Positions 22,832 to 59,077 of a DNA stretch of 64,000 bases are shown here, piece by piece; within the stretch, counting starts at the first letter, position 1, and every line of letters starts with the position of its first letter. Below the pieces are notes generated by a model that saw only the letters and a program-made list of their open reading frames with translations, was not told where the DNA came from and did no database searches. The position numbers were made by a program, and so were the translations under genes. The stretch is from a virus. Where the stretch lies: IMG/VR virus record IMGVR_UViG_3300034092_001898, positions 1 to 64,000 of that record; one strand, 5' to 3'.

Positions 22832-24052
22832 GTGGCACGGATTCTCTATTGCGGCGACATTGGCGCCCAGACAGGTTTTGGGCGTGTAGCAGAGGAGCTT
22901 ATTCCTCGCTTGACGGATAAGCATGAAATCTATGGCCTAGCCGTGAATTGGCATGGCGATCCGTCGCCCATGCAGCAGTATTGCCGCATGTATCCTGCCC
23001 ATGCTGGCGGGCCTGATCCATTTGGCTCCCATCGGATCGCAGACTTGGCCGCAGCCATCAAGCCGGATCTTGTGTGGATGACTAACGATCTGTGGTGCCT
23101 GCCCCCTCTGCTTTCGGCATTGAAGCCAGTACGGGAGCAAGTGCCAATGAAAGTGTATGGCTATGTGCCCATTGACTCTTACGGTATCTTTCCGGAGTTC
23201 ATGCCACATCTTGACGGGCTTGACGGCCTCGGCACTTATACGCAGTTCGGCAAAGAGGAGATCGTAAAAGCTGGATACTCTGGCATCATTGACGTGATTC
23301 CTCATGGCGTAGACCGTTCCAAGTTCTTTCCATTGGACCGCAATGAAGCTCGACAAGCCATGGGCATTGGGAAAGATGACTTTGTGGTCTTTAATGGCAA
23401 TCGCAATCAGCCGCGCAAGCGCATTGACATTACCATTAAGGGCTTTATTCGTTTTGCCAAGAACCGCCCTAATGCAAGGCTGTGGCTTCACATGGGAACC
23501 AAGGATCAAGGGTGGGACATTATCCCCTTGTTCAATCGTGTGGCGCGAGACTATGGGTATGATCCGGCTGGTCGCCTGATCCTGACCAATCACAACTTCA
23601 GCGTTAACAACTGCCTGTCCATTGCCGACCTTAACCGGGCGTACAATGCCGCTGATATTGGTGTCAACACTTGCATTGCTGAAGGCTGGGGGCTTGTCAA
23701 CTTTGAGCAGGCTGCTACTGGTGTAGCACAACTTGTGCCGGATCACACCAGCCTGAAGGAGATTTTCTATGGCGTCAAACGCATTGATTGCCTTGAGGCC
23801 GAGACTGATCGTGGTTATGGATTGGAGCGCCCCATTCCATCTGCTGTAAGCATGGCCGAGCGGCTTGCGGAATACTATGAAAATCCTCAGGCACTGCAAG
23901 ATGCGGGAGAATGGTGTTTCAGTCGTGCCACTGATCCAGCTTATGACTGGAATACGATTGTTAAGCAAATGACTGGCATCATTGATCGCTGTCTGAACGA
24001 ACAGCCAACACCTATTTTCAAGGGCTTTGGCACTCCCGTGAGGCTGGGATGA
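22832..24052 (+). CDS. Glycosyltransferase family 4 (GT-B)
   Basis: TGFGRV, IPHGVD..F.P, NRNQPRKR, YNAAD, EGWGL..E. Confidence 0.9.
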   Translation: MARILYCGDIGAQTGFGRVAEELIPRLTDKHEIYGLAVNWHGDPSPMQQYCRMYPAHAGGPDPFGSHRIADLAAAIKPDLVWMTNDLWCLPPLLSALKPVREQVPMKVYGYVPIDSYGIFPEFMPHLDGLDGLGTYTQFGKEEIVKAGYSGIIDVIPHGVDRSKFFPLDRNEARQAMGIGKDDFVVFNGNRNQPRKRIDITIKGFIRFAKNRPNARLWLHMGTKDQGWDIIPLFNRVARDYGYDPAGRLILTNHNFSVNNCLSIADLNRAYNAADIGVNTCIAEGWGLVNFEQAATGVAQLVPDHTSLKEIFYGVKRIDCLEAETDRGYGLERPIPSAVSMAERLAEYYENPQALQDAGEWCFSRATDPAYDWNTIVKQMTGIIDRCLNEQPTPIFKGFGTPVRLG

Positions 24053-24765
24053 TGCAAGTTTCACAGATTTTTCTTAATGAAGCGAATAGCCTTGAGCTAT
24101 CGCCTCAGTTGCAATACGCAACGGGTACGGTCAAGGCTTTGTTTCCTGGTGCTGATTACAGGCTCTACGGAAAAGAAGACCTGCGCAGTTTAATCAAGAG
24201 CCATTACGACGAAGAAGTGCTGTGGGCATTTGACACTCTCCGCCCCTATTCATATAAGGCTGACCTTGGCCGCTTTTGTATCTTGAACGCTTTGGGCGGC
24301 TGGTATTTTGACATTGGAGTCAGGGGCGCTGCTCCGGTTGAGATTGGCGAGAGGATCAAGTTCTTGGCCTTTCGTGACATTCAGCGCTTTAGCTTTACGA
24401 GCTTTGCTTGTGCTACTACCGTTCTTTATTCCCAACGCAACAATCATGCCCTGTCCATTGCGATTCGTCAAATCGTAGAGAATTGCAAACGGGAATACTA
24501 TGGCATCACTCCATTGTGCCCCACTGGCCCGACGCTGCTTGGACAGGCACTTGCCAGGCATGGTAGCGATGCGGACTATGTGTTTGGTGATTACATGGAG
24601 TTGACGCCTTCGCATGAGCAAAAGAATCGTGCTTTCGTGCTGCCTAATGGCACAATTATGGCTTGGAGCAAACCTGCCGGTGGTGGCGACCTGACCGCTC
24701 TTGGAGCCACTGGTGTCAATAATTACAACGAGCTTTGGGCCGCACGCAAGGTGTACGCAGCATGA
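24049..24765 (+). CDS. Glycosyltransferase, DXD sugar-binding (GT32-like)
   Basis: YKADLGRFCIL..GGWYFD, TGPTLLG. Confidence 0.85.
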   Translation: MMQVSQIFLNEANSLELSPQLQYATGTVKALFPGADYRLYGKEDLRSLIKSHYDEEVLWAFDTLRPYSYKADLGRFCILNALGGWYFDIGVRGAAPVEIGERIKFLAFRDIQRFSFTSFACATTVLYSQRNNHALSIAIRQIVENCKREYYGITPLCPTGPTLLGQALARHGSDADYVFGDYMELTPSHEQKNRAFVLPNGTIMAWSKPAGGGDLTALGATGVNNYNELWAARKVYAA

Positions 24766-25415
24766 ACCATCTAACTGAACTCGCCAACAGCTACAACAGC
24801 GACAAAGGTAACGTCTACAAATGCGCCCATTATTACACTCAGCACTACGAAAAAGTATTTAATAAGTATAAAAATAAGACTGACTTTTCTTTGTTGGAAA
24901 TCGGGCTAAATCGTGACGATTGCAGTGAAGTACCGTCGCTTCGCATGTACCGAGATTACTTTGGGAAAGAGGCCAAATTGTCAGGCTTTGATATTCGCCC
25001 AGAATTTAAAGCTTTTGAAAGCGCAGGCTTTGAAATCTTTACAGGCGACCAATCTTCACCAGATAGTCTTAGCCAATGCTTGATTAATCAATATGACATC
25101 ATTATTGACGATGGCTCCCATGCATCTTCGCACCAACAAATTAGTCTTCGTGAGCTATGGCAAGCAGTGAAACCAGGGGGTATTTATGTGATTGAAGATT
25201 TGCACTGGCAGCCTTTTTCTGAATCGTGCTCTAGGACTGTGGCAGTGGCGGACCGCTGGAGTGCGGGCGACTTGAAACCTTCTACATTTTTTCCATTGCA
25301 ATGGATGGATCAATTCAAAAAAGATTTAAAGCACATTGAATTGCTTCCTTCCGCGAGCCCTCTGCATCCTGCTGATCTCACTCAAAAAGCTCTCCTCTTC
25401 CTTTGGAAACAATGA
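24762..25415 (+). CDS. Class I SAM-dependent (sugar O-)methyltransferase
   Basis: SDK..H.Y..HY, LLEIG, GDQS, DIIIDDGSH, KPGGIYVIEDL (MycE/demethylmacrocin-like). Confidence 0.85.
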   Translation: MNHLTELANSYNSDKGNVYKCAHYYTQHYEKVFNKYKNKTDFSLLEIGLNRDDCSEVPSLRMYRDYFGKEAKLSGFDIRPEFKAFESAGFEIFTGDQSSPDSLSQCLINQYDIIIDDGSHASSHQQISLRELWQAVKPGGIYVIEDLHWQPFSESCSRTVAVADRWSAGDLKPSTFFPLQWMDQFKKDLKHIELLPSASPLHPADLTQKALLFLWKQ

Positions 25416-26710
25416 CAACTAGCTGGGACTGTTTTGACACCTTGGTAACAAGGGCTCGCTTTGATCCCTTGACAGTCTTTGACTGGATGGGGGAGGAATA
25501 TAGCCTTGCAAATTTTACGCAACGGCGAAAAGCAGCAGAGAGTAGGGCGCCCAATACCTTGTCGTCTATCTATGAAGAACTGGCTAAAGATTTTCAATGG
25601 ACGACAGAGGAGAAAGAATATTACAAACAGAAAGAAATTGAAGCTGAATTGAAGCATTGTCTTCCCATTGAAGAGAATTTACGAAATGTGAAAGATGGGG
25701 ACTTAATTGTCAGTGACATGTATTTGCCTCGTGAGGCAATCGAAGGTATTCTGAGAAAGAATGGCATGGATAAAGCCGTTTCTTTCTATGTGAGCACTGG
25801 AGGTAAAAGCTCTGGCACCATTTGGCCACATCTTCCGCCTATTGATCTGCACGTAGGGGATAATGTTCACTCGGACGTGAGCAGTCCTCGCAGTCATGGC
25901 ATCAATGCCTTGCACTACACAGACATGCATTTCTCTCCCCACGAGCAAGCGGTGGGTGGAGAGCTAGCCCTGCTAATGAGAGTGGTGCGCCTTGCCAATC
26001 CTTACACCCCATGCACTGACTTCCATCGTCTCTGGTTTGAGCAGGCGCAGCTTAATGTGCCAGCGTTGGTACTAGCAGCAGCCTCGTTGCCTAAAGAAAA
26101 CCTAGCTTTTGTCTGGCGTGACTGCGTGCATTTGCAGCGTATTCACCAGCAATTGCATGGCACCCACAATGTTCAGTTTCATTGCTCAAGAGTGGCAATG
26201 GCAAGCGGAGGAGCCGAATGGAAGAAATATGCAGAGAACACCGCTAAAGGGAGAGTCATTGTTGACTTGCAGGGCAGTGGCAGGAGCGTTGTCCAATATT
26301 GGCGCGATAATTTCCAAGAAGCGCCGCAGTTGCTTTACATAACGGGAATGATGACACATGGTCATGCTTTAATTACAACTCCCACCGATGTGATTGAAAG
26401 GTTTAATTCTTCCTCCCTTGGGTCAATGGCGCAGTTTCCTGAGCGCTTTAAAAATGAGTTTGAAGAAGAGTTTTTGCAATGCCAAAAGAAAGCCATCGAC
26501 AAGGCTATAGAGTACATGCCATTCTTTAATTTAAAAGAAGAAAATCTTCCTCTTCTGGGCTCCATCATTCAACTGATGTATCATTCAAAAACTCCTTTGT
26601 TGACACCCCATCAAAGCAATCATTGTTCTGGCCATAAAGAGATGGACTGGCCCGCCGATAGATACTTGGACGATAAGATGGCTATATCAAGAGTTTTTGG
26701 TCATGACTAA
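25412..26710 (+). CDS. HAD-superfamily hydrolase of polysaccharide-cluster type
   Basis: SWDCFDTLV.R, VSDMYL, HVGDN.HSD. Confidence 0.85.
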   Translation: MTTSWDCFDTLVTRARFDPLTVFDWMGEEYSLANFTQRRKAAESRAPNTLSSIYEELAKDFQWTTEEKEYYKQKEIEAELKHCLPIEENLRNVKDGDLIVSDMYLPREAIEGILRKNGMDKAVSFYVSTGGKSSGTIWPHLPPIDLHVGDNVHSDVSSPRSHGINALHYTDMHFSPHEQAVGGELALLMRVVRLANPYTPCTDFHRLWFEQAQLNVPALVLAAASLPKENLAFVWRDCVHLQRIHQQLHGTHNVQFHCSRVAMASGGAEWKKYAENTAKGRVIVDLQGSGRSVVQYWRDNFQEAPQLLYITGMMTHGHALITTPTDVIERFNSSSLGSMAQFPERFKNEFEEEFLQCQKKAIDKAIEYMPFFNLKEENLPLLGSIIQLMYHSKTPLLTPHQSNHCSGHKEMDWPADRYLDDKMAISRVFGHD

Positions 26711-26744
26711 TAAGCAAAAACAAGCCAAAGTTGCCAAGGTTTAG
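26703..26744 (+). pseudogene. Orphaned 5' end of DUF6496-like gene (MTNKQKQAKVAKV*)
   Basis: Similar to the N-terminus of ORF 27305 (MSSRKQRQKIARV); truncated exactly at the HNH stop. Confidence 0.6.
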
Positions 26745-27262
26745 TCCTGATCTGCGACAATATGATTCCATTGCCGATTTTTTTCAATATGACTAATTGT
26801 TGTTCGTGTTACGTTTATTGCTTTTGCAAGCATGTTTCGGGACAGGGACGGATTGGCAAGTAATATATTTTTAATGGCGGCTACTTGTTCTTCTGATAAT
26901 TTGCTCCGACCATTGTTGATTCCTTTATGAGTGCCATGAAGAATAGAATCTTGGCAATTCTTCTCTGGCGTACCCCAAATTAAATTAATGGCTCTATTGT
27001 CGTAGCGATTGCCATTCAAATGACGAACAACTTCAAAGTCTTTGGGCTTGCCATGAAAAGCTTCGCAAACAAGCCTGTGAACCTGTCGAGTTAACCCAGA
27101 TACGCCGCTGGGATAAAGACCTACCTTTCCGTAAGGACCAGAAAAATTCACCTTAAGAAGAATCCGCCTGTCGTCTTTGTACTTACAAACGCGACCTTCA
27201 CTGCTGACCTCATAGAGTCCGTCGGTTTCCGCTATGGGCATCCAGGTTTCCTCGTTAGACAT
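26741..27262 (-). mobile_element. Free-standing NUMOD4-HNH homing endonuclease
   Basis: ETWMPI..YEVSSEGRV, VHRLV..AF, HLNG...DNR..NL.WGT..N; lower GC; antisense to operon. Confidence 0.85.
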
Positions 27263-28543: not shown

Positions 28544-29731
28544 ATGAGCAATACTTCTTTTCGCTACGACGTAGCGCCGATTGAGAAGTACGAGCTAACC
28601 CCCGAGGGTTATCTGCGGCTTCATGCCACAATCGCTCGCACTGGCGTTCAGCATTACTCCAATGCTGACGGTTCAATTCGGCGTGAATATCGTGCCGCTG
28701 AAGATGTGGCGCTCCCTGAAAGTCTTGCTTCTTTTGCGGGCAAGAGCGTAACTGACGAACATCCCCCGGTCCTGCTTGATAGCGCCAACACCACAAACTA
28801 TCAAAAGGGCTTCACTGGCTCTGAGATTGTTTATGACAATGGTTTTGTCCGAGCAGTTATGACAATTACAGACCAAGAACTGATCGACAAGATTCAACGG
28901 GGTGATGCTACGGAAGTTAGCGCAGGCTATCGAGTGTCCTTTGATGCCAACCCTGGCACCACTCCTGATGGTGAACCGTATGACGGTCGCCAAAAGGAAA
29001 TCATTGGCAATCATGTAGCCGTTGTTAAGACCGGGCGAGCAGGCCCGCAAGTGAAATTGCATCTTGACCGACAGGATGCCGCCGATCCTTCTCTTCTCAA
29101 TTCTGGAGATTCTCTTATGACTACCGCAAAGGTGGTCTTTGATGGCGCTGACTTTGAAGTGAGTGAGGGCGTTGCCCTTGCTGTCAACAAAGAACGCGCT
29201 GATGCAAAGACCTCTTACGAGGCCATGAAAAAGCAGTACGACGAAATGTGTGGCAAAGCCTCCAAACTTAAGGAGGAAATGGATGCCATGGAAAAGGAAA
29301 TGAAAGGCAAAATGGATGCCGCTGATGGTCGTGCTGATGCCCTCGCTGTTGAAACTGAATCGCTCAGGGCTGAACTGGAAGCGGCTAAAGCCGTGAATGT
29401 TGACAGCCTTGTCGAAGAGCGCATTGCCCTGATCGAAAAGGCCAAGCCTGTCCTTGACAGCGCTTATTCCTTTGCTGGCAAGTCCGCTCGTGAAATCATG
29501 GTCGATGCCGTTAAGGCAGTTCGTGGTGATTCCATGAATCTGTCTGAACGGTCTGACGACTACGTTCAAGCCGCTTTTGACACCATTTCCGTTGACGACC
29601 GTAAGGATTCGTCTACTGGTCCTCTGCGCAATGCCGTCGCATCCGTGATGGCAACCATTCCCCAGGACACGTATCAGGAAACGGTGGGAAAAGCCTACCT
29701 CCGTCCTCTCACCGCTTCTAAAGGAGCCTGA
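28544..29731 (+). CDS. DUF2213 prohead protease/scaffold protein
   Basis: TPEGYL..IARTG, TDEHP, EVSAGY, NHVAVV..GRAG; coiled-coil C-half. Confidence 0.9.
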   Translation: MSNTSFRYDVAPIEKYELTPEGYLRLHATIARTGVQHYSNADGSIRREYRAAEDVALPESLASFAGKSVTDEHPPVLLDSANTTNYQKGFTGSEIVYDNGFVRAVMTITDQELIDKIQRGDATEVSAGYRVSFDANPGTTPDGEPYDGRQKEIIGNHVAVVKTGRAGPQVKLHLDRQDAADPSLLNSGDSLMTTAKVVFDGADFEVSEGVALAVNKERADAKTSYEAMKKQYDEMCGKASKLKEEMDAMEKEMKGKMDAADGRADALAVETESLRAELEAAKAVNVDSLVEERIALIEKAKPVLDSAYSFAGKSAREIMVDAVKAVRGDSMNLSERSDDYVQAAFDTISVDDRKDSSTGPLRNAVASVMATIPQDTYQETVGKAYLRPLTASKGA

Positions 29732-29734: not shown

Positions 29735-30295
29735 ATGGCCGTTGCTTTCACTGCGTCTGGCACCCCCACTGTGGGCGGTGTGCAGACTTCCTATCCCCTC
29801 GTTCACGACGCCTTCCTGGAAGGTCAACTGGCCGATGCCCGCAACAAGGTGATTGACTCTTTCGTCAATGAAACCTCTGGCGTGGTGGCTTTCGGCAACC
29901 TGCTGGTTTGGAATAGTGGCAGCACTACTGCTGATTCCGCTCGCACCATCTCCGGCACCACTGGCACTGTTGTTGGCCTGAACATTCTCACTTACGTTGA
30001 CGAAACTGCCCGTGACGCCAATAGCCGCCCCGGCGCGAAAGATCGTCAACTGATGAACGTTTTGCGTCAAGGTGCTGCTGTGGTTTATGTCCATGGCGCC
30101 GTTGATCCTTCTACTCCTGTTCGTGTCATTCACACCGCTTCCGGTGTGCAGTATGCCGGTCAATTCTCGGCTTCTGCCGTTAGTGGCCGCACCGCCACTC
30201 TTTCTAATGCCGCCTACCTGTCCAAGACCACTGGCAGTGGACTGGCAGTGCTGGAACTGAATGGCCCCACTTTCACTCTCACCGCCAACACCTGA
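29735..30295 (+). CDS. Capsid decoration/cement protein
   Basis: Between protease and MCP; beta-rich, V.FG and G.V.V motifs. Confidence 0.75.
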   Translation: MAVAFTASGTPTVGGVQTSYPLVHDAFLEGQLADARNKVIDSFVNETSGVVAFGNLLVWNSGSTTADSARTISGTTGTVVGLNILTYVDETARDANSRPGAKDRQLMNVLRQGAAVVYVHGAVDPSTPVRVIHTASGVQYAGQFSASAVSGRTATLSNAAYLSKTTGSGLAVLELNGPTFTLTANT

Positions 30296-30302
30296 GGTAA
30301 CT

Positions 30303-31217
30303 ATGTCTGATTATCGTATGGACGAGGCGGGACTGTTTCTTCAGCGCCAACTGGAGTACATTCGCCCGCAAGTGTTTGAGACGGCTTACGCCGACATCAA
30401 ATACCCCACCCTTTTGCCTGTCACCAGTGAGGCTGGCCCCGGCGCCCAGCAGTTCACCTATCGGGTGATGGACAGCACCGGTAAGTTTGACTTCATTGCT
30501 GACAATGCTGATGACCTGCCGCGCTCTGACGTGAGCCAGGTCGAGAAGTCAATCTACTTCCGCTCCATCGGTGGTTCGTTTGGCTACACCGTCCAAGAAC
30601 TGCGTGCCGCTCAAATGGCCAACGTGGCTCTTGAGTCGCGTCGTGCTGCAGCGGTTCGCCGGGCTTACGAAGAGAAAGTGGAAGACATCGCCATGTTTGG
30701 TGATGTTTCCACTAATCTCACTGGCTTCTTCAACAACCCCACTGTGGATGTTGTGACTGCCGACAAGTGGTTTGACACCGCAAGTGTCACCACCACTGAA
30801 ATGCTTGAACTGCTGAACTATGGTTCCACTGCCATTGTGAATGGTTCAAACATGAAGGAGCAGCCTGACACCCTGCTGCTTCCTTGGGTTGACTATCAAA
30901 AGGTCTCCTCCACTCGCAACAGTGATTCCAGTGATCTCACCGTCCTGGAATACTTCCTGCGCACCAACCCCTACATCCGCAACATTGAGCCCATCCTGCA
31001 ACTGGACAACAGCAAGACCACGGGCAAGCTCAACACCCGTCGGATGGTGTTCTACAAGCGGGACCCTGAAAAGCTCCAACTGCACATTCCGCAGCCCCTG
31101 GAACTGTTCCCGCCCCAGCAACGCAACCTGCAGTACATCGTTCCCGCCCATGCTCGCGTGGGTGGCGTAGCGATTTACTACTCCAAGAGCGTTGTCTACG
31201 TGCAGCGCAGCACCTGA
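30303..31217 (+). CDS. Major capsid protein (DUF2184 / encapsulin-like HK97 fold)
   Basis: FL.RQLE.I, DDLP..D, YT.QEL.AA, G.FN.P, PDTLLLP, GGV.IYY. Confidence 0.9.
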   Translation: MSDYRMDEAGLFLQRQLEYIRPQVFETAYADIKYPTLLPVTSEAGPGAQQFTYRVMDSTGKFDFIADNADDLPRSDVSQVEKSIYFRSIGGSFGYTVQELRAAQMANVALESRRAAAVRRAYEEKVEDIAMFGDVSTNLTGFFNNPTVDVVTADKWFDTASVTTTEMLELLNYGSTAIVNGSNMKEQPDTLLLPWVDYQKVSSTRNSDSSDLTVLEYFLRTNPYIRNIEPILQLDNSKTTGKLNTRRMVFYKRDPEKLQLHIPQPLELFPPQQRNLQYIVPAHARVGGVAIYYSKSVVYVQRST

Positions 31218-33421: not shown

Positions 33422-33639
33422 AAATGCTGTCAAGCGATTGCGGTAGCGCATGGCTTTTCAATGTAAAGAGAGAAGAGGATCAGCTAGTTGCTGGCCTTGC
33501 CTGCTTCGTCAGCAATTCTCCGGAGCAAGTCATTGTGCAATGGAGAGGCGAAAGGCTAATCCTTGGACTTCCCCATCGTGCCGTGTCTAATCCCATGCCG
33601 TGTCGTGTGCTGAATGCTAGACTTGCGCTGCTTAATTGA
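33418..33639 (+). CDS. Hypothetical protein
   Basis: ATGA coupling. Confidence 0.5.
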   Translation: MKMLSSDCGSAWLFNVKREEDQLVAGLACFVSNSPEQVIVQWRGERLILGLPHRAVSNPMPCRVLNARLALLN

Positions 33640-33644
33640 TTTTC

Positions 33645-34166
33645 ATGAGCCAATACAGCGAGTTTTTCTTGATTGGCAGCCCAAAGTATGCTGCCATTGC
33701 TGCTGCTTTGCGGCTTCGCAGTTACGGCAGTTGGCTGACTGAGGAACTGTGGCTGCGTGATGCGCAGACCAAAAAGCGGGCTGGGTTTTCAATGAAGGCC
33801 ATTCGTTTGGCGCGACGCATTGCGGCACAGAAAGGCATTAGCGAGGACGATGCGTTTGACCTCCTTCAGTCTGATGGCCCCGAAAGGCAAGAGGTGCTGG
33901 GGGACTTTGCAGAAGAAGCGGCAGCGTTGTTTGCTCTCCTTCCATCGCCTCAAGAGCAATTTGAGGAACTGGTGACAAAGTTCTTCCAGAATCGCGGGGA
34001 GGTGAAAAAGGGCACGGAATGGACCTCTACGCCCGACTGGAGCCGGGAGGACACTGGCAAGCTCACCAAGACCATGCTCGATGCCGTAGAGGCTTTCATG
34101 GCCCAGGAGGAGGGCTCTAGCAATACTGAGACCGAAGAGGACGACGCCCCAAAGGAACAAGGCTAG
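33645..34166 (+). CDS. Tail assembly chaperone (gpG-like)
   Basis: Upstream of tape measure; ends with slippery C-CCA-AAG. Confidence 0.75.
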   Translation: MSQYSEFFLIGSPKYAAIAAALRLRSYGSWLTEELWLRDAQTKKRAGFSMKAIRLARRIAAQKGISEDDAFDLLQSDGPERQEVLGDFAEEAAALFALLPSPQEQFEELVTKFFQNRGEVKKGTEWTSTPDWSREDTGKLTKTMLDAVEAFMAQEEGSSNTETEEDDAPKEQG

Positions 34167-41724: not shown

Positions 41725-42069
41725 ATGGAGATTACACCGACCATTCTTAAGGCCATTGCAGCACATGGTCAAGAGGATGCACCAAATGAGGCGTGTGGCG
41801 TGTTAGCGAATGAAATGGCTATCCCATGTATCAACACTTCTCCATGGCCAACCAAGCGCTTTGAGATGAATCCAACGGTTTGGCTTGATTATGACGTAGA
41901 GGGTTTTTATCACAGCCATCCAGAAGGAGAGCAAGGCTTTAGTGAGCAGGATTTGCAAATGGCCAAGTTCCTTGGTATTCCCTCCATCGTCTACATCGTT
42001 ATCACTGATACAGTGGAGATACTTAGTGAAGACGGCAGTTTTTCACGAATTGAGGGAATCAGCCAATAA
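41725..42069 (+). CDS. Tail tip protein K-like (JAB/MPN domain only)
   Basis: P.EACG, YHSHP..FSEQD. Confidence 0.8.
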   Translation: MEITPTILKAIAAHGQEDAPNEACGVLANEMAIPCINTSPWPTKRFEMNPTVWLDYDVEGFYHSHPEGEQGFSEQDLQMAKFLGIPSIVYIVITDTVEILSEDGSFSRIEGISQ

Positions 42070-46077: not shown

Positions 46078-46079
46078 TT

Positions 46080-50997: not shown

Positions 50998-52199
50998 CAC
51001 TTCCTGGCTTGGTTCGAGCTAACAATTTATCTGACCTCACGAATGTCAGTGAGGCGTGGGACAATCTAGCCCAAGATCTTGACTATTCATACAATGCGCA
51101 GAGAGCCAATTACGTTAACAATTCTGCCGTAATTCGACAGGACGAAAAAAGTAACGTAACAGTGGCACAAGCCAGTGGTATTCCATTGAGCCATGGCGGG
51201 CAGTATGTCTACAAGATCACAGAACAGGCTGGCACTGCGATTCCTTTTCCGTTTGGCTATCTTCGCGCTGCGGCAACAAGTGCAAATTACGCAAACCTTG
51301 ACTGGCGACTCAATGTAAGCAATGGGCCAGTAGTGGGATCAATTTTGCTTAAGGCAGGCACGCATAGCTTTGTTGGCATGGCGTTGCGACCTGGGAATGG
51401 TGGCAACTTCTTCAAGGACACCAACTATCCCTTTTTTGGTATTGACTTGCTTACGGGCAATCGCCAAGATTGCTTTGGTACCGGCAAGCCCTATGAAATC
51501 ATGGGAGCCGTAGAAGAGGAGGACGGATGGTGGCGAGTGTCCATGAGCAGCATTTGCCAGCAAGCGTATGGCACTGCTTCGATTGACTTAATCTTTTTGC
51601 AGCAGGGCAATTTAGCAGTGGTGCCCAATGCGTCATCCACTGATGGCAGCAAGTTCTTTTATGCGGCATTGCCACAGATTGAAACTGGCCACGAACCATC
51701 GCCAATCATTATCACAGTCAGTGAGCAGCCAGTATCACAAGCGACTGTTGCAACGTCGGCCAGTGGCTTGAGCTTTGGTGGAGAGGACATTAGTGCCATT
51801 CGTGGTCTAAGCAATGTTGGCACCACCAATCTTTTGCTGGCATCATCATTGCTCAGAGCAGCGCAACCACGCATTAGTCAACTTCAAGCGTCAGGCCAAG
51901 CGGCAGTTGCTTCGGGGGCTAATTGCCTGCCCATTGTTTCTCCGTCGTCTACTGGCAATTACGTCGTCAGCGGTCTTGTCGCCAGCGGCTATAGCGTCAA
52001 TGGAAATGCAATCAATACCGTATCTGTTAGCCCTTTGTCTGGCACAACAGCCACTGTGCCACTGCAAGTTGATGGCCTCATTCCTCAGGCATGGAAGGCC
52101 GATACAGCATTTGCGTCAGGCAGTCTTTCGTCGCCAAGTCTTGCAATTCCCATTGAGTATGATGGTTTTTACGTGGCCATCGTTGTGGGGCAAGCATAA
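50994..52199 (+). CDS. Fibre/spike protein (NNLSDL motif)
   Basis: GLVRANNLSDL..A..NL; GWWRVS; PQIE.G..PSP.I.T. Confidence 0.7.
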   Translation: MTLPGLVRANNLSDLTNVSEAWDNLAQDLDYSYNAQRANYVNNSAVIRQDEKSNVTVAQASGIPLSHGGQYVYKITEQAGTAIPFPFGYLRAAATSANYANLDWRLNVSNGPVVGSILLKAGTHSFVGMALRPGNGGNFFKDTNYPFFGIDLLTGNRQDCFGTGKPYEIMGAVEEEDGWWRVSMSSICQQAYGTASIDLIFLQQGNLAVVPNASSTDGSKFFYAALPQIETGHEPSPIIITVSEQPVSQATVATSASGLSFGGEDISAIRGLSNVGTTNLLLASSLLRAAQPRISQLQASGQAAVASGANCLPIVSPSSTGNYVVSGLVASGYSVNGNAINTVSVSPLSGTTATVPLQVDGLIPQAWKADTAFASGSLSSPSLAIPIEYDGFYVAIVVGQA

Positions 52200-53545
52200 T
52201 GGCAAGACGCTATGGACTGAGAGCCAGTTCTAATCTTGCAGACGTTGCCAATAATACGCTTTGCGTTGAAAATCTCAACCTTCGTATTGCTGACTTTGTT
52301 TCTATTGCTGGCATCAGCGCTACTGGCGTTACTCCTAGCGATTTCGCTGCACTGCAGGGGCTTCGTGCGCCACTAGAGGCTCAGATCACGGGGTTCGCCC
52401 CTATTGCTGCAGCGCTTCTATCGGGACTGGCCTTGAAAGCCCTGCGGACTGGAGATTACATCAGTGGCACGCTCACCGTTAATGGGATTGTCTCTGGGGA
52501 CCGGGCCTTCATTCGCACCACTGGCAGTGGGGCTGTCTACAGTGCTGCATCAGGGAGTTTCTTTTCGCCCATTAGTGGCAGTACGTTTTCCGGCGGTGGC
52601 TTTTACCTTTCTGGCCCAACACGGATTAGCGGCCTCAACACTGGCAGTGGCTTGGGCAACTACACTGGCACCACTTTTTCATGGCAGCCTCATTACGAAG
52701 ACTACAAAGTGTATCAGCGCATCACCAATAGCTCTGACACTCTTTTCGCTATTCGCACCAAACTGCCTCCTCCGACTGTTTTTAGTGGCTGCCAACTGTG
52801 GCTTGATGCTGAGAAAAGTTCGGTTTCGTACTTTGCGGCCAATCGGATTAGCCAATGGAATAGCCTGATTAGTGGTGGACCAAGCGCAGCGCAATTAACA
52901 AGCGGCAATGCTCCGTACTATCTGGTTTCTGGCATCGTTGACAGCGGCATCCTGAAACCCGGCATCAACTTTACTGGCACTGACTTTTTCTCCCTAAGTT
53001 CACTTGGCGGATTCTTTCCCGATGGGGCTACGGTTGTCATCATGGCCCAAGTTGAAGATGCAGACTACTGCTTGTTAGGTAACAACTCAAGCAATGCCGG
53101 ACGTTGGCGCACCACTTCGGGCAATGGCACTTGGCCGCTATTTTGCGCTTCGCCCATTGATCGCTTCCCTGCAGTTATGCCTGCCAATGGAACATTTGTG
53201 TTTGGTATTAGAGCATCACAAGCCTACGGGTTAGAAATTAGGAGCAATGGACAGCGGTTAGATTATGCCTCCCCATCAGGTTTTGAATATCAAGCCAGTG
53301 GAGAATACCTGCTAGGTACTGCTCCTGGTGGCGCCGGACGTTTCGGGGGAAAGGTGTTCGCCGTGGTGGCCTTTAATCGAGTGCTGCCAGATAGGGAATT
53401 GCGCACCGTGGAGGAGTATTGCCTGTGGCGCTATAATTCAGTCTATAACCCTGATGCCACGCAAACTTTGCAGTTAGAGGATGGTTCCTTCCTGCAACTT
53501 GAAACTGCATCTGGTACCACTGATTTCGTCGTAGATCTAGGCTGA
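52199..53545 (+). CDS. Fibre protein with lectin-like (LamG-type) C-terminus
   Basis: NLADV; LWLDA..I..W..; FNR.L...E...VE.Y. Confidence 0.7.
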   Translation: MARRYGLRASSNLADVANNTLCVENLNLRIADFVSIAGISATGVTPSDFAALQGLRAPLEAQITGFAPIAAALLSGLALKALRTGDYISGTLTVNGIVSGDRAFIRTTGSGAVYSAASGSFFSPISGSTFSGGGFYLSGPTRISGLNTGSGLGNYTGTTFSWQPHYEDYKVYQRITNSSDTLFAIRTKLPPPTVFSGCQLWLDAEKSSVSYFAANRISQWNSLISGGPSAAQLTSGNAPYYLVSGIVDSGILKPGINFTGTDFFSLSSLGGFFPDGATVVIMAQVEDADYCLLGNNSSNAGRWRTTSGNGTWPLFCASPIDRFPAVMPANGTFVFGIRASQAYGLEIRSNGQRLDYASPSGFEYQASGEYLLGTAPGGAGRFGGKVFAVVAFNRVLPDRELRTVEEYCLWRYNSVYNPDATQTLQLEDGSFLQLETASGTTDFVVDLG

Positions 53546-53934
53546 TGACAAAACTGAGCCAACTAGCAGTGATTTCCGGCTCGGCATTAGCCGATAACGA
53601 CCTGCTGTTTGTCAATGATGTAAGTGATGCGTCATTACCGAGCAAGGCTTTAACGATTAGCGGCCTGAAGCAAGCGATTGCTTTGGCTTTTGTGGGCACC
53701 AATCCTGAGGACATTCCCCTCAATCAGCATCTTGGCGATCTTGCGTTTCTTGACACCTTCCAGCCCACGATTGTTAGTGGCCTTAACGTAAGCTCTGACG
53801 TAGCCTCTAGCGGTGTTCGCACAGCCACCTTCACTGCCACTAATGCTCCAGGGGCTTCTAACGTCGTGGTAAGGCAATGGTTGCCAGTAGTGATCACTGG
53901 CGTCACTCATTACCTTCCATTGTTTGCTCCTTAA
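53545..53934 (+). CDS. Small virion protein
   Basis: KLSQL; GT.P..IPLNQ.LG.LAF.D. Confidence 0.65.
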   Translation: MTKLSQLAVISGSALADNDLLFVNDVSDASLPSKALTISGLKQAIALAFVGTNPEDIPLNQHLGDLAFLDTFQPTIVSGLNVSSDVASSGVRTATFTATNAPGASNVVVRQWLPVVITGVTHYLPLFAP

Positions 53935-55241
53935 TGCCTGCTGGTTATCCTACGGTTAGGCCACTGCAAATGCTTGATTACGCAAATCAAGCAAACATTG
54001 ACTCGCGCTTTGTTTTTACGCGATCTACAACTGGCTCTTACGTTGATGCTTCTGGCATTCAACAAGTTGTCGGAGTCAATGAACCGCGACCATCGTACCA
54101 TCCGCTAACGGGAGCCTATCAGGGCTTGCTACTGGAAAGCGCAGGCACCAACTTGCTGCCATGGAGCAATGACATTACAGCATCTGGCTGGTATTACGCT
54201 CCGCAAAATGGCGCTATTGGTTCAGGGTACACGGGCATTGGGGGGCTTCCCACGGCTTATCGTGTTGCGGAAGGCAGTGTACCTGGGACATGGTTTATTG
54301 CCACTTCTGTTGCCATTAGCGGCCAAACTAATTATGGAGTATCGGCGTTTCTGAAAAGCGATGGCGTGAGCCGTGGCTATTTGCAGTTTGTTGGTGTTGA
54401 TGCAAGCGGAGTGGTGAAAGGCAATGTGGTGGTTTATTTTGACCTACGCCGAGAGCTTGTATTCCCAGAAAACTATGGCGTCAACACAGATACAGCGCTG
54501 CTAGAAAAACGCAAAAATGGGTGGTTTCGCGTAGGGGGAACTGGCCCAATCGCATCCGGCGCGGTACTGGGAGTAGTGAACTTAGTGCTGCAACGTGACG
54601 ATGGAAGCCTATTTTATCAAGGGAATGGACAAGGCTTGCTGACGGATGGTTTTCAAGTGGATGCCAATGGCAGCAATGCCTACATTTCTTCGTTCATTGC
54701 CACGTCAGGAACGGCTCTTACTCGCGCTGCAGATGCCATAACAAGCGCCAGCAATCAACTTGATGATTGGTACGTTCAGAGCGGAGCCACTTTTTATCAA
54801 GATGCCTTGGTACTGAATGACGACTTTTATGGCAGTGGGCGTTACATTTTTCAAGCACTTGCAGTCGCCACTTCAGCAAGAGCAGAATTACGTATTAACG
54901 CTGCCTCCAATGGAGCGCGAATCGCCGGAATAGTCGCTAGTGGAGTTGTTGCTGATTTTTCGATTGGTTCTTTTGCTCCTGGCAATGGCCTTGAATCATG
55001 GGAAGCGCCAGCATCAGGCTCCGGGACAAGCCGAACCATTGCCACTCGCTCTGCATTTAGCTTTTCTCCATCGGGACTTTTCTTGGCCTTTAATGGCCAA
55101 TCTGTTACAACGTCTGGCCTTGTTCCATCTGGCGTTAATCGACTTAGCTTACAGCCCGCTAATGCCGGGAAAGTTATTCTACGTCGTGCTACCATCTACC
55201 CATTGCTCACCAATAGTGAGGCGCTACTGTTAACACAATGA
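53934..55241 (+). CDS. Spike/fibre protein (TRAAD family)
   Basis: FTRS..G.Y, GLLLE...TNLL..S, NGWFR, SSFI.T....TRAAD. Confidence 0.75.
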   Translation: MPAGYPTVRPLQMLDYANQANIDSRFVFTRSTTGSYVDASGIQQVVGVNEPRPSYHPLTGAYQGLLLESAGTNLLPWSNDITASGWYYAPQNGAIGSGYTGIGGLPTAYRVAEGSVPGTWFIATSVAISGQTNYGVSAFLKSDGVSRGYLQFVGVDASGVVKGNVVVYFDLRRELVFPENYGVNTDTALLEKRKNGWFRVGGTGPIASGAVLGVVNLVLQRDDGSLFYQGNGQGLLTDGFQVDANGSNAYISSFIATSGTALTRAADAITSASNQLDDWYVQSGATFYQDALVLNDDFYGSGRYIFQALAVATSARAELRINAASNGARIAGIVASGVVADFSIGSFAPGNGLESWEAPASGSGTSRTIATRSAFSFSPSGLFLAFNGQSVTTSGLVPSGVNRLSLQPANAGKVILRRATIYPLLTNSEALLLTQ

Positions 55242-57025
55242 CAAGGGGACTTGTACGAGCCAATAATTTTTCGGACTTGACCGACAAGGATCAGGCCGTT
55301 ACAAATCTCGGCCTATCTTCCGTTGATTATGCCGCCTTAAAAGGACTCTATACCACGGCAGGAATTGATTTTGCCGTGATTGGCGAGATTGGCAATAGCC
55401 AAGGCAACTATCAAGCACAACTCGATGGAGTGTCCAGCACGTTTTCTGGTATCGTCCTGTCAGGTTATGTTAATCGCTCTGGCAATAGCGCCATTACTGG
55501 TAACTGGTCCCATAGTGGCATTATTGATATTGTGAGCGGCCTGCCCAGCGGTTATCCAGCCTCAACAGACAGCCTGTTTTCCCTTTCCATTGAAAACGGA
55601 GAGGCAGTTATTGTTGCGTCCGGATTGATTGCAAGCGGACTATCGTATAATGGAGTGAGACAATCAAGCTCAACCGTACAACGAGCACTTCCACCAAGCG
55701 GCTTTAGTCCATTGCATTTGATTCCTTTACAAGTTGGTGGCCAAGGGTATTTCGCGGAAGCGGGAGAAAGCCCTAGCTTTCATATTGCCCCGGCTCGACT
55801 TGGCCATGCTCTTGACCTTGTTACTGGCAATTTGATCGGCACCTACAACTCAGCATCCCCGGCTATGGCCGTCGGTTCCGACGGGCTGCTGTTCACCCCA
55901 GCAGCGAATGCGCCGGTCATTGAATACAACCCCGTGACTCGGGCGTGCCTGGGAACGAGGATCTGGGGGGTGGTGACGAATCAGATCCGCAACAATACGA
56001 TGGTCGGCGCGGCAACGGGAATACCGGGAACGATGCCGATTAACTGGAGCGATGTCCCGACCAGCAATGGATTGAGTCGGCAAATTGTCGGGATCGGAAC
56101 AGAGGCTGGAATCACCTACATAGCCATCCGATACTCTGGAACAACAACGGCAACGGCAAGCACCGTTCTGCAGCCTGAATTAAGCGCCGTTGTTGTAGCC
56201 GCAACCGGTCAATCATGGACTGCAAGTTCATGGCTTGCATTAGCTGGCGGCTCAGCGAATGGACTGACAATAGTTCAACGGGTTACCGGCCGCTCCTCTG
56301 GCGGTAGCTTCCTTGAGAACACTGATACAACAATAACGCCGAGTTCGACACTGACTCGCTATGCAGCGTCAAAAACAATGACGAATGCGTCAACATTAAG
56401 AGTTTCCTGCGACATTGTCCTTTCCTACAACTCTGGCGCCGCCATTGACATCACCCTCCGCATCGGCCTGCCTCAGCTAGAGCAATCGGCAACCATGGGG
56501 CCAGTGGTGCCGACGTCAGGACTTATCGCCAGCAGCACCGCCGATGTGTGGTCAATCACGGGCGCGGATTTCAACAGGATCTACAATCAATCGGCGGTGA
56601 CGTTCTACTTTGACGGATCCTACGTTCAGGCCGGCCCCTCATCGTTTCCCAGGATGATTGCCGCAGTGGGATCAAACCCTAACACTGATGAGGTTAGTAT
56701 TTATGGCCGCGTCAATACTGGCAGTGGGGATGGTCGCTTTTACGGCAGTTCTACAATTGCTGGGACAAGTCAATTCACGCTTGGCGAGTTCACATCCCCA
56801 GTGATGAATAGCGGCAAAGCGGCGGCGGCTTTCGCCTTGAATGATGCCGCTATGTTCGACGGCCAGGTGTTAACGACTGACAACACCGGGACTCTGCCAG
56901 TAGCGCAGGAGCTACGGATTATGGGCCAAGCACGTTTTCAGCCAATGCCCAACGGCTACATCCGCGAGCTTGCAATTTTCCGCAGCCGTCGGCCTAACGC
57001 CAACCTCCAGGCGCTGACAACATGA
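55238..57025 (+). CDS. Mosaic fibre/spike protein
   Basis: N-terminal GLVRANNFSDL; C-terminal TN.IRN..M.GA..G.PG..P..W, RIGLPQLE. Confidence 0.75.
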   Translation: MTRGLVRANNFSDLTDKDQAVTNLGLSSVDYAALKGLYTTAGIDFAVIGEIGNSQGNYQAQLDGVSSTFSGIVLSGYVNRSGNSAITGNWSHSGIIDIVSGLPSGYPASTDSLFSLSIENGEAVIVASGLIASGLSYNGVRQSSSTVQRALPPSGFSPLHLIPLQVGGQGYFAEAGESPSFHIAPARLGHALDLVTGNLIGTYNSASPAMAVGSDGLLFTPAANAPVIEYNPVTRACLGTRIWGVVTNQIRNNTMVGAATGIPGTMPINWSDVPTSNGLSRQIVGIGTEAGITYIAIRYSGTTTATASTVLQPELSAVVVAATGQSWTASSWLALAGGSANGLTIVQRVTGRSSGGSFLENTDTTITPSSTLTRYAASKTMTNASTLRVSCDIVLSYNSGAAIDITLRIGLPQLEQSATMGPVVPTSGLIASSTADVWSITGADFNRIYNQSAVTFYFDGSYVQAGPSSFPRMIAAVGSNPNTDEVSIYGRVNTGSGDGRFYGSSTIAGTSQFTLGEFTSPVMNSGKAAAAFALNDAAMFDGQVLTTDNTGTLPVAQELRIMGQARFQPMPNGYIRELAIFRSRRPNANLQALTT

Positions 57026-57433: not shown

Positions 57434-57949
57434 ATGCTTCGCATTAGGAACGGGGAACAACTGGAGCGTCAGTTAATGACCAGCGATGGTCAAGAGGCGA
57501 GAATCGCTTTTAGTCGCCCTGGCACTACTTTCACTTATTCTGGCAACGTTGTTGTTGGCTCTACGGCATCTGGCGTATTTGAAGTGGTGACGAGCGGCGA
57601 AGCGAACATGAGCTTGTTCGTGACCAATGCTCGCGTAAAAATGGTCCGTAGCGGTGTGCCATCGGGGTATTCGGCAATGCGACTGCATTGGTTCAATGCT
57701 GCACCATCAGGTATTAACGATGGATCGGCGCTAGTAGTTAGCAGTGGCGATAGTGAAAAGTACAAAGGCTACAGCGACCTCATTGGTGTAGTAGATTTGG
57801 GGCAAACGATTGTATCTCAAGGCGCTTTGCTGAATAAGCAGATCTTGCTCAACAGTCCTTCGGTGTGGCTGGCCCTCACTCCTGGCACGGTGTTTGCTGC
57901 AGCCTCTGGTACGCCTTATCAAGTGGAACTTGACTACTTTATAGTTTGA
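57434..57949 (+). CDS. Virion structural protein, Ser-Gly rich
   Basis: LH.FNAAP..I.D, Y.GY.DL. Confidence 0.6.
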   Translation: MLRIRNGEQLERQLMTSDGQEARIAFSRPGTTFTYSGNVVVGSTASGVFEVVTSGEANMSLFVTNARVKMVRSGVPSGYSAMRLHWFNAAPSGINDGSALVVSSGDSEKYKGYSDLIGVVDLGQTIVSQGALLNKQILLNSPSVWLALTPGTVFAAASGTPYQVELDYFIV

Positions 57950-58227
57950 TGGAAGATCAATACTGGCGGTTTGCTACTGAGTCGGAAGCCATTGGCGCTT
58001 TAATGCAAGCCAGGATTATTGCTAGCGGCTCTACTGCCGCCACGGTTGGCGTCTTGGATTTTGTGGGGACGATTGCTTATGGCGGAAAGTTTGACTACGA
58101 AGCTCGACGTTTGACTTCCCCTCCATTGGCCTTTTCTGGCTATCACGTTAATTATCGTGGGCCAGTCGTAGCAGGTCTCGCTAAGTATCGCGTGTTTCCC
58201 TCTGCTCCATCGCGGAAGTTTGCATAA
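57949..58227 (+). CDS. Fibre-associated small protein
   Basis: Y.RF..E.EA..D.VG.I..G.HVN.R..P..P.R.FA family that accompanies TRAAD fibres. Confidence 0.65.
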   Translation: MEDQYWRFATESEAIGALMQARIIASGSTAATVGVLDFVGTIAYGGKFDYEARRLTSPPLAFSGYHVNYRGPVVAGLAKYRVFPSAPSRKFA

Positions 58228-58565
58228 TGGAACCAGCCTGCTTTCCAATTACCATCACTCAAGGCGCCACTTTTGATTTGGAAGTGGCGTGGCAAGATTC
58301 CAATGAAATTGGCATCAACATGTCAGGCTGGACGCTAAAAGCTGATCTTTACAATCGCCTTGGCACGCAAAAGCTCGCCTCCTTTGTTTTGCCATGGTCC
58401 AATCAGGCCAGTGGTATTTTTAGGCTCACCATGGCAGCCAGCACTACAAGTGGCATTACTGAAAACGGCCAATACGATGTTTTTGCCACTGATCCATCTG
58501 GGCGAGTGTATTGTCCCCTGGAGGGCTCTGCCCATCTCAATCCCAGCCTTTCGTTTCGGCCATGA
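58227..58565 (+). CDS. BppU-like virion protein
   Basis: I.QGATF..W, YD...D..G....LEG. Confidence 0.7.
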   Translation: MEPACFPITITQGATFDLEVAWQDSNEIGINMSGWTLKADLYNRLGTQKLASFVLPWSNQASGIFRLTMAASTTSGITENGQYDVFATDPSGRVYCPLEGSAHLNPSLSFRP

Positions 58566-59077
58566 CCATCATTGCTAACGTTACAAACAACAGCGTAGTA
58601 TTGCGGGAGCCAGGGCCTGCTGGCGCTCAAGGGATACCGGGATCCAGCGTTAGGTATCAAGCGCAAATTATTCACCTTCCCATTGTTACAATTTCCGGCA
58701 TAGTGCAAAACGTTTATAGCCCAGTGGCTATGAGTGGTACGTTTGACTCAGGGGTGGCCAGTGGTATTGTTGTAGGATCAGGCTTTAGCTTGCGCAATAA
58801 CACTAACGCCACACTCATTTTCAATGCTAGTGCAGTAGCGGAAGCCACTGCTAACAACAACGAAAACCTAGGCTTGCGCCTCACTAAGAATGGTGTCACC
58901 ATTGCCAATAGTGAAACCAGTGCTCACGTTAGCAATTCGAGTGCTGCGTCTTTGCTGATTGTCCCATCCTTTTACTTGGAGCTTGCCCATGGCGATGAAG
59001 TAGGATTGGCCGTGACCAATTTTTCGGCTAACGTCAATATCAGCCTGCAGCGAACACGGCTAACCCTTAGCGTTTAA
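58562..59077 (+). CDS. Virion protein with short collagen-like motif and C1q/TNF-like domain
   Basis: PGPAGAQGIPG; L.KNG..I..S, L..GD.V. Confidence 0.6.
   Translation: MTIIANVTNNSVVLREPGPAGAQGIPGSSVRYQAQIIHLPIVTISGIVQNVYSPVAMSGTFDSGVASGIVVGSGFSLRNNTNATLIFNASAVAEATANNNENLGLRLTKNGVTIANSETSAHVSNSSAASLLIVPSFYLELAHGDEVGLAVTNFSANVNISLQRTRLTLSV

Follow-up and report, generated by a model that had tools for sequence, protein, structure and literature searches.

Serine-Glycine Enrichment in Virion Proteins and a Head-Module Glycosyltransferase Island in a Cyanosiphovirus of the S-CBS4 Clade

The 64,000-nucleotide stretch of viral DNA analyzed here, referred to as the window, is the first 64 kb of IMG/VR record IMGVR_UViG_3300034092_001898. 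The record is 77,245 bp long and is rated complete by CheckV, and the window is part of a complete 77-kb freshwater cyanosiphovirus of the S-CBS4 clade. Two features of the window are considered: an excess of the dipeptide Ser-Gly (SG) in a subset of the virion proteins, and an island of four genes that is located among the head genes and is predicted to build a glycan. The comparisons support the conclusion that the SG excess is lineage-specific, is confined to virion proteins, and goes beyond amino acid composition. Gene content and gene order likewise support the existence of a late-module, translationally coupled island of soluble, putatively glycan-building enzymes. A preliminary description of the sequence joined the two features by proposing that the phage builds a methylated glycan on SG sites of its decoration, tube, and fiber proteins. 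This interpretation, O-glycosylation of the virion at SG by the island enzymes, is partly supported by the sequence comparisons described below, and we favor it tentatively over the alternatives, although it is less likely than not. This analysis newly contributes a quantified SG signature specific to the lineage, a partial association of that signature with a GT4 glycosyltransferase of the B736L type in two phage groups, and a reinterpretation of the accessory genes; the island itself had already been annotated.

Ser-Gly excess in cement, neck, and distal tail proteins

The expected number of SG dipeptides was obtained from composition-preserving shuffles within each protein. When the 14 proteins encoded downstream of the J-like tail hub (45673-59077, 4486 residues) are pooled, 112 SG dipeptides are observed versus 47.2 expected (z 10.6, ~2.4x). 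SG is the largest outlier of the 400 dipeptides in these proteins, the runner-up being at z 3.9. The reverse dipeptide, Gly-Ser (GS), has a z of -0.6, and Thr-Gly (TG), Ala-Gly (AG), and Asn-Gly (NG) have values of 0.6, -2.2, and 1.0; Asp-Gly (DG) is mildly raised, at 3.4. The head and proximal tail proteins, when pooled, give a z of 0.05 for SG. Seven proteins of the window exceed z 3.5, namely the cement protein and six distal tail proteins, and the top single-protein values range from 4.3 to 6.3. The excess that had been noticed by manual counting is thus beyond composition, and the counts themselves all reproduce: SG and GS number 8 and 2 in the 171-residue protein at 57434-57949, 19 and 5 in the 448-residue protein at 52199-53545, 15 and 8 in the 435-residue protein at 53934-55241, and 7 and 2 in the 186-residue decoration protein at 29735-30295, with no SG in the major capsid protein and 5 in the 853-residue J-like protein. 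The emphasis that the preliminary description placed on SG outnumbering GS requires some qualification. The SG excess is real, but the asymmetry alone is not specific, because the non-structural open reading frames (ORFs) of the phage (window 1-20000 and 59074-64000, plus L101) have GS at about half of its expected frequency, with SG close to expected.

SG is carried by the cement protein, a pair of neck-region proteins, and the majority of the proteins distal to the hub, all encoded on the plus strand. The cement, or decoration, protein (29735..30295; PF22758, 8.5e-14) contains 7 SG versus 1.8 expected (z 4.3). The two neck-region proteins (31941-32348 and 32381-32959), which have no family match, show SG ratios of 2.8x and 2.3x across the clade, and several of their SG sites are kept in 42-48 of 44-48 sequences. 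Distal to the hub are two small tail proteins of 134 and 242 residues (45673..46784), with 5 SG versus 1.6 expected (z 3.1) and 6 versus 1.7 (z 3.6), and with 2 and 0 GS, respectively. Six consecutive distal tail or fiber proteins (48508..57025) of 829, 401, 448, 129, 435, and 595 residues match the tail/virion families phrog_1645 and phrog_5939 and have SG z values of 2.7, 2.0, 6.3, 3.8, 4.7, and 3.0. The last structural proteins (57434..59077), of 171, 93, 112, and 188 residues, have values of 4.6, 1.8, 3.5, and 2.2.

The broader statement that exposed virion proteins as a class are rich in SG therefore holds for the cement, neck, and distal proteins and fails for several other structural proteins. 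The tape measure, the portal, the prohead protease, and a 579-residue protein are not enriched, and neither is the J-like central tail fiber/hub protein (42069..44630, plus strand; phrog_31, 1e-101), with 5 SG versus 6.0 expected. The major capsid protein (30261..31217, plus strand; DUF2184, PF09950, 8e-56) lacks SG, has 3 GS, and shows a clade ratio of 0.68x. The tail tube, which had been named among the SG-bearing proteins, drops out: the probable tube protein (33636..34166, plus strand), which has no family match and is named by its position before the chaperone pair and the tape measure, contains 0 SG and 3 GS, and its clade homologues have a ratio of 1.0x.

Both families of serine codons are used at SG sites, AGY 56 times and TCN 63 times. 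Selection thus operates at the protein level and not on a DNA word, and a DNA-level cause of the excess is ruled out. A loose context, [I/V]-[T/V]-A-S-G-x-T-x-x-G, surrounds the sites: Ile/Val, Thr/Val, and Ala occupy positions -3, -2, and -1, and Thr and Gly are found at +2 and +5, respectively. This context, which is that of a strand, a tight turn, and a second strand, is absent around other x-Gly pairs. A generic preference for turns is ruled out as the origin of SG, since NG, TG, and AG are flat and only DG is mildly raised (z 3.4). The analogy to the eukaryotic proteoglycan attachment motif, which had been offered as a precedent for SG, does not hold up; no GT14-type xylosyltransferase is present among the family-scan matches, and the SG context is hydrophobic or Thr/Ala-rich, not acidic.

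The SG excess can be compared with a set of ~80 control proteins, comprising the structural proteins of lambda, SPP1, and Che8, the T4 fibers, the S-CAM4 tail, and outgroup homologues. Pooled SG ratios in this set are 0.9-1.7x with a maximum z of 3.1; for the Che8 structural proteins, the ratio is 1.24x with a maximum z of 1.8. Homologues of the 435-residue tail protein from RcapMu, P106B, P12024S, a T5-like phage, S-CAM4, and RHph_X2_25 contain 0-6 SG, compared with 7-9 in the aligned domain of the window protein, and read DG, AG, NA, AA, and similar pairs at the window SG positions. Similarly, four outgroup homologues of the 171-residue protein contain 0-4 SG versus 8, with AA, TA, AG, and SA as the aligned pairs. 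Because the outgroup homologues of both families lack the excess, SG is not a property of the folds, and this explanation is ruled out for the two families. Judged from these alignments, the window lineage has converted small-residue turn positions into Ser-Gly. Scans of IMG/VR with the 448-residue fiber and with an S-CAM4 tail protein returned 2-3 loci only.

Comparisons with two relatives of the window show how the individual sites evolve. In the comparison with the close relative L082 (~90% identity), 88% of the Ser residues in SG are conserved versus 76% of other Ser (Fisher p 0.003), and 92% of the Gly residues in SG versus 87% of other Gly (not significant). With respect to G003 (26-67% identity), 17 SG sites are shared, 49 are found in the window only, and 31 in the relative only, and here the Gly of SG is conserved at 45% versus 62% for other Gly (p 0.016). 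The number of SG sites is thus kept while their positions turn over, which fits variable surface loops and not indispensable turn glycines. The cement and neck proteins, which are more conserved, behave differently: in their alignments several SG sites hardly vary, the Gly is kept more strictly than the Ser, and the Ser of SG alternates with Thr or Ala.

A four-gene glycosyltransferase island in the head module

The island consists of four genes on the structural strand, flanked upstream by the genes of the portal and a 225-residue protein and downstream by the prohead protease gene. When the true ATG starts are used, all three junctions within the island are ATGA overlaps. The cluster is thus present among the head genes and translationally coupled, as first described, and its expression with the late genes is predicted. 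None of the four island proteins contains a hydrophobic or membrane segment, and the island lacks carrier-lipid, flippase, and polymerase genes.

The first gene (22832..24052, plus strand, GTG start; phrog_2170, 2e-47) encodes a GT4-type (GT-B) glycosyltransferase of the chlorovirus B736L/A546L kind. A profile built from 19 clade sequences matches the structure of NY-2A B736L (PDB 3oy2) over the full length, residues 4-392 to 4-395, with an E value of 4.5e-29, and the single sequence matches it at 5e-14. B736L is the sole solved structure with a full-length match to this protein, and bacterial GT4 enzymes come next, at ~1e-3. The Pfam Glycos_transf_1 score of the lone protein is 24.0 versus a cut-off of 26.4, and the score in the genome search, 26.9, is above the cut-off. 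An E-x7-E motif (E284, E292) in the C-terminal Rossmann domain is invariant in 19 of 19 aligned sequences. On the basis of these matches, the protein is assigned to GT4, a family of retaining GT-B enzymes, and to the B736L/A546L subfamily.

The second gene (24049..24765, plus strand), which overlaps the GT4 gene by ATGA, encodes a GT32-like (Gly_transf_sug) protein. Its score against PF04488 (GT32 sugar-binding region), 21.4 bits versus a cut-off of 23 (E 4e-4), misses the gathering score, and the match of its profile to Och1-type α-1,6-mannosyltransferase is at E 0.035 only. The earlier designation as a DXD-glycosyltransferase needs correction in its motif. The canonical site reads GGWY-x-D-I-[A/G] in 23 of 23 clade sequences, in which the second Asp of DXD is absent, and the lone D-x-D of the window protein, at residues 174-176, is away from the canonical site.

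The remaining two genes encode predicted accessory enzymes. The third (24762..25415, plus strand; phrog_21658, 5e-17; PF13578 sub-threshold) encodes an S-adenosylmethionine (SAM) methyltransferase. Its start is revised to the ATG at 24762, not further upstream, and it has ATGA overlaps at both ends. The fourth gene (25412..26710, plus strand) was listed as a 435-residue ORF; its true start is revised to 25412, which yields a 432-residue protein of two parts, a CrpP-like phosphatase of the HAD type and a C-terminal domain. Library scans of Pfam, PHROGs, and NCBIfam gave no match to this protein. Profile positions 5-185 match residues 386-609 of Bcs3, the capsule polymerase of Haemophilus influenzae type b, with an E value of 3.5e-18, and motif I, W-D-C-F-D-T-L, a single-Asp motif, aligns with the F-D-I-F-D-T-L of Bcs3 that holds the nucleophile D386. 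In Bcs3, the ribose-5-phosphate phosphatase CrpP comprises residues 374-591 and CriT comprises residues 592-1036 (PMC10299916). The N-terminal part of the island protein is assigned, from this alignment over the catalytic and cap domains, as a CrpP-type HAD-like phosphatase. The HAD hydrolase of the preliminary description is thus correct for residues 5-185 but overlooks a further domain of ~245 residues.

Unlike the phosphatase part, this C-terminal domain is not matched to Bcs3 by sequence. A profile search found no match to Bcs3/CriT beyond residue 185, and the domain is ~245 residues long versus 445 for CriT. The link to capsule enzymes is by comparison of Atlas structures only: in the ESM Atlas model, residues 185-410 superpose on the post-HAD region of multidomain capsule enzymes with a TM score of 0.7-0.8 by query, and the AlphaFold2 model is poor (predicted local distance difference test, pLDDT, of 49). 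The modeled fold suggests that the domain is possibly a ribofuranosyltransferase of the CriT type, dependent on phosphoribosyl pyrophosphate (PRPP). The two-part architecture hints at a phage-encoded, PRPP-dependent addition of ribofuranose, with homologues at L003:5795-7054 and L066:5792-7090.

Among relatives of the window, the GT4 gene is found in the same slot in every contig with enough upstream DNA (~25 contigs, GT4 55-86% identity), and the GT32-like gene is found in nearly all of them, kept across the clade at 61-91% identity. The accessory genes are less widely shared. Methyltransferase homologues at >50% identity are present in L003 only, and homologues of the CrpP-like gene are present in L003 and L066 only. 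Other relatives instead carry DUF4422, a sugar C-methyltransferase, a CmcI-like O-methyltransferase, a 2-oxoglutarate-Fe(II) (2OG-Fe(II)) oxygenase, or a flavin adenine dinucleotide (FAD) oxidoreductase. L004 encodes a 2OG-Fe(II) oxygenase resembling prolyl hydroxylases, G001 combines DUF4422 with a sugar C-methyltransferase and a CmcI-like O-methyltransferase, and G003 combines DUF4422 with an FAD oxidoreductase, possibly a UDP-galactopyranose mutase. Variable accessory regions are located at L004:5553-6251, L090:3406-5952, and L098:11875-16257. A conserved core with swappable tailoring genes, lacking carrier-lipid, flippase, and polymerase genes, is as expected for a short glycan that is built directly on its acceptor. 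With regard to the methylated glycan of the preliminary description, a methyltransferase is indeed present here, but such a glycan would be particular to this genome; close relatives have other enzymes in place of the methyltransferase and the HAD protein yet keep the SG excess.

The closest named relative is Synechococcus siphovirus S-CBS4 (NC_016766), with identities of 58% for GT4, 75% for the capsid, and 64% for the portal. S-CBS4 gp014-gp016 are annotated as a glycosyltransferase, a "galactosyl transferase", and a SAM methyltransferase, and the gene order matches that of the window: portal, hypothetical protein, GT4, second glycosyltransferase, methyltransferase, HNH, protease, cement, and capsid. 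Because this order is identical, the island as a genomic feature was already deposited and annotated. S-CBS4 differs from the window in lacking the CrpP-like two-domain gene. No published function for the S-CBS4 glycosyltransferases was found in the searchable literature.

The genes that border the island are typical of a head module. Upstream are the portal gene (20039..22123, plus strand; PF06381, 3e-60; phrog_146, 2e-97), whose product has 5 SG versus 4.5 expected and which marks the upstream edge of the island slot, and the gene of a conserved 225-residue head-module protein with no assigned function (22120..22797, plus strand; phrog_24776, 2e-74), which adjoins the portal in all relatives. 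The downstream edge is an HNH/NUMOD4 homing endonuclease gene (26741..27262, minus strand; PF13392, 4e-11; phrog_59, 1e-39), on the strand opposite to the island; S-CBS4 has a homing endonuclease at the equivalent position. The DUF2213 prohead protease gene follows (28544..29731, plus strand; phrog_530, 2e-95), with 1 SG versus 2.0 expected in its product. Further observations concern other parts of the window. Two paralogous ORFs in the early region (774-1373 and 15218-15832), 14 kb apart, both match phrog_18326 (E 1e-34 to 1e-36). The tape measure (35079-41024) is 1981 residues long versus 1095-1504 residues in G001-G003 and S-CBS4, which predicts a markedly longer tail. A search for near-identical DNA among isolated phages returned no match to the window. 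Contigs with related capsids number at least 159 in IMG/VR, of which 80, 73-96% identical to the window capsid, were kept, and the clade is therefore large and mostly uncultured.

Association of Ser-Gly with the glycosyltransferases and competing explanations

If the island enzymes act on SG, the two features should accompany each other across phages, and this is observed in part. A version of the head module lacking glycosyltransferases (portal, morphogenesis protein, DUF2213 protease, cement, and DUF2184 capsid) is found in Vibrio phage vB_VpP_1 and 23 IMG/VR relatives. Profile searches of five whole records of this group, with the window as positive control, found no glycosyltransferase. 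In the glycosyltransferase-bearing clade, the cement proteins contain 273 SG versus 109 expected (58 distinct sequences, 2.5x), whereas those of the sister group contain 17 versus 30 expected (22 distinct sequences, 0.57x; Mann-Whitney p 1e-10). A homologue search with the cement protein retrieved clade members only, at identities of 59% and above, and no relatives lacking glycosyltransferases. An extra ORF of L142, a phage without glycosyltransferases, was considered as a hidden glycosyltransferase and was rejected as an endonuclease VII-like protein.

A second instance of co-occurrence is seen in S-EIVl, which has an unrelated genome architecture, a GT4 that is 43% identical, and four SG-rich proteins, one with 25 SG versus 7.4 expected (z 7.7). 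In 29 S-EIVl-like contigs, the homologue of this SG-rich fiber contains 34-46 SG (z 10-13). The S-EIVl-like fiber is ~600 residues long and is encoded 7-9 kb from the B736L-type GT4 (L103 and L147, equal to record 78221..731 and 768-2573; L148-L176). A search for fibers of this type in phages that lack GT4 matched, among isolates, S-EIVl itself only. Within the clade of the window, a link between SG and the accessory genes (methyltransferase and HAD protein) was considered and rejected: the SG excess persists in L082, a match to L004, although its accessory genes are other ones. L004 and L082 probably stem from the same phage, to judge by their identical identity profiles.

Several observations weigh against glycosylation at SG by the island. 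The cement contrast rests on a single phylogenetic split, and the complete phages L142 and L143, which have no glycosyltransferases, contain 5 and 4 SG in their cement proteins. In the distal tail, the SG ratio is ~2.1-2.4 in the window and L082 and 1.6 in G001, but 1.4 in G003, ~1.3 in S-CBS4, and ~1.2 in G002, inside the control range despite the clade-wide glycosyltransferase pair; lambda reaches 1.6-1.7x without such enzymes. The tail signal of S-CBS4 is weaker than that of the window, with three small proteins above z 3.5 and two large fibers flat. The SG of the S-EIVl fiber stems from an internal repeat, SG-x-T-x-T-G-T, which fits a structural repeat as well as a sequon; the Thr at +2 and Gly at +5 of the window context echo this repeat, and a repeated β-solenoid unit therefore explains part of the signal. 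In addition, the S-EIVl GT4 gene adjoins a primase gene and not head genes. Microcystis phage Mae-JY09 encodes a 27% identical glycosyltransferase between its capsid and adaptor genes, a placement that favors a virion role, but the head proteins that were examined show no SG excess.

Further points of this kind come from the window proteins themselves. The AlphaFold2 model of the cement protein (pLDDT 85) matches chain 8hdt_G of the Pam3 capsid (E 8e-9), as well as the T1 and XM1 cement proteins. All seven of its SG sites fall within loops, strand ends, or the disordered arm at the N terminus, as had been anticipated for surface-exposed sites; however, ~63% of the model is non-strand, and the placement therefore fits exposure but does not discriminate. 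In the cement alignment, several SG sites are near-invariant, yet the Gly is more conserved than the Ser, for which Ala is often substituted. SG is absent from the capsid and probable tube proteins, the kinds of protein that mycobacteriophages glycosylate, and the missing Asp of the GT32-like protein also counts on this side.

A number of these observations would be accommodated if the two features are unrelated, the island being a late-expressed moron whose target lies outside the virion (a glycan or glycolipid of the host envelope, or else some soluble product) and SG being the unmodified β-hairpin or β-solenoid turn signature of a sub-lineage. The failure of SG to track the glycosyltransferase pair inside the clade, the excess that L082 keeps with other accessory genes, the strand-turn-strand context with its explicit repeat in S-EIVl fibers, the greater conservation of Gly in the cement protein, the 1.7x ratio of lambda, the position of the S-EIVl GT4 homologue among replication genes, and the fact that the acceptor of chlorovirus B736L is itself unknown (PMC9614988) all fit this explanation. 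A fold-driven preference would, however, be expected in homologues, and the 435-residue and 171-residue families show no excess outside the lineage. The excess also spans the unrelated folds of cement, neck, and fiber proteins and is specific for Ser, with TG, AG, and NG flat, and at longer distance SG glycines are kept less often than other glycines, which is unexpected for indispensable turn residues. The absence of carrier-lipid and export genes and the fixed head-module slot across the clade likewise speak for a virion acceptor. On balance, we regard unrelated features as the main alternative, only slightly less probable than glycosylation at SG. Clearly less probable is a variant in which virion proteins do receive glycans from the island, but away from SG or through recognition of a fold, with the SG excess as a separate trait. 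Soluble enzymes encoded in the head module and the lack of SG in the capsid and probable tube proteins are compatible with it, as is Che8, which has a glycosylated virion according to PMC12363180 and shows no SG excess; this variant leaves unexplained both the strong, Ser-specific, virion-restricted signal and the cement contrast between phages with and without glycosyltransferases.

The SG dipeptide could also mark another process on exposed virion proteins: serine might be modified in a different way by an enzyme of host or phage, or protease or receptor interactions in the host or environment might exert selection. A lineage-wide, virion-specific signal does imply a trans-acting factor or a shared environment, and the islands of relatives hold other protein-modifying candidates, for example the 2OG-Fe(II) oxygenase of L004. 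The genome scans, however, revealed no SG-specific candidate enzyme, and the proposal, which is too unspecific for computational testing, is judged improbable. Finally, modification of phage DNA by the glycosyltransferases, as in the glucosyl-hydroxymethylcytosine systems, appears very improbable. Genes for a dCTP deaminase and a homologue of thymidylate synthase are present in the genome, and the S-EIVl GT4 homologue lies beside a primase, but no hydroxymethylase-type family is present among the scanned ORFs, the glycosyltransferase genes are in the head module, the accessory enzymes (sugar methyltransferases, the CrpP-like ribose-5-phosphate phosphatase, and DUF4422) are typical of glycan loci, and GT4 resembles B736L and not the T4 glucosyltransferases.

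Proposed mechanism and comparison with known glycosylation systems

Under the preferred reading, virion O-glycosylation at SG, the island enzymes would assemble a short glycan in the cytoplasm late in infection, placing it straight onto virion proteins as these fold or once they are assembled. The sugar would be accepted by the serine at the SG turn tip, alone or among other acceptors; glycan composition would vary from strain to strain, and the coat would give the fibers and the capsid cement an altered surface chemistry. The logic of such a system may be likened to that of the heptosyltransferases TibC and Aah, which act in the cytoplasm on TibA and AIDA-I and hyper-glycosylate these β-rich surface proteins on serine, not threonine; their mapped sites include an N-S-G-G turn (PMC4358343). 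The serine-only, turn-located sites parallel the Ser-specific SG signal of the window. This is a likeness of logic and not of membership, as TibC and Aah belong to a dodecameric, iron-containing, ADP-heptose-dependent family that has no gene in the window genome.

The enzyme most similar to the window GT4, B736L, is a soluble GT-B protein that binds GDP-mannose and is 81% identical to PBCV-1 A546L; its acceptor and activity are unknown, and the NY-2A capsid glycan lacks mannose (PMC9614988). Similar to what is proposed for the window phage, chloroviruses glycosylate their own capsid and methylate the sugars (PMC9614988). Their capsid glycans differ in being N-linked and are not at Ser-Gly. Among phages, mycobacteriophages Che8, Corndog, and Myrna provide examples of phage-encoded virion glycosylation, with the capsid and tail tube subunits as substrates (Freeman et al. 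2023, as cited in PMC12363180). Cytoplasmic modification of the structural proteins of the phage itself has been proposed for their glycosyltransferases, which in some cases are accompanied by methyltransferases, and is also suggested here; the substrates differ, given that the capsid and probable tube of the window lack SG. The capsid and tail tube proteins of Che8 (L115, 5051-5872 and 7613-8422) both have Gly-Ser at the C terminus (..NKTGS and ..YSDGS).

Virion glycosylation in cyanophages was not found reported in the searchable literature. To our knowledge, a few actinophages are the only phages for which virion glycosylation by their own enzymes has been shown; giant algal viruses offer a further known case. 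A broader proposal, which goes further than the window itself and which we regard as doubtful though worth stating, is that a widespread freshwater and estuarine cyanophage clade writes a serine-specific O-glycosylation code, SG at β-turn tips in cement, neck, and fiber proteins. The code would be read by a viral GT4 common to chloroviruses and S-EIVl-like phages, and strains would exchange the glycan caps, among them methyl, ribofuranose, and galactofuranose groups, in the manner of an O-antigen locus. Both S-CBS4 and its host, Synechococcus CB0101, are in culture, so these proposals are open to direct testing.

Even without a sugar, the SG excess calls for an explanation, as it is specific for serine, is found in virion proteins only, and replaces other small residues of homologues. 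If the SG sites are glycosylated, virion self-glycosylation would extend to an abundant group of cyanophages, and an acceptor would be suggested for the chlorovirus B736L/A546L enzyme family. A sequence signature that can be read directly would make glycosylated virion proteins predictable from metagenomes. If, as in the broader proposal, the caps are also exchanged between strains, each phage particle would display a "serotype" that varies, with possible consequences for adsorption, aggregation, grazing, or the response of host defenses.

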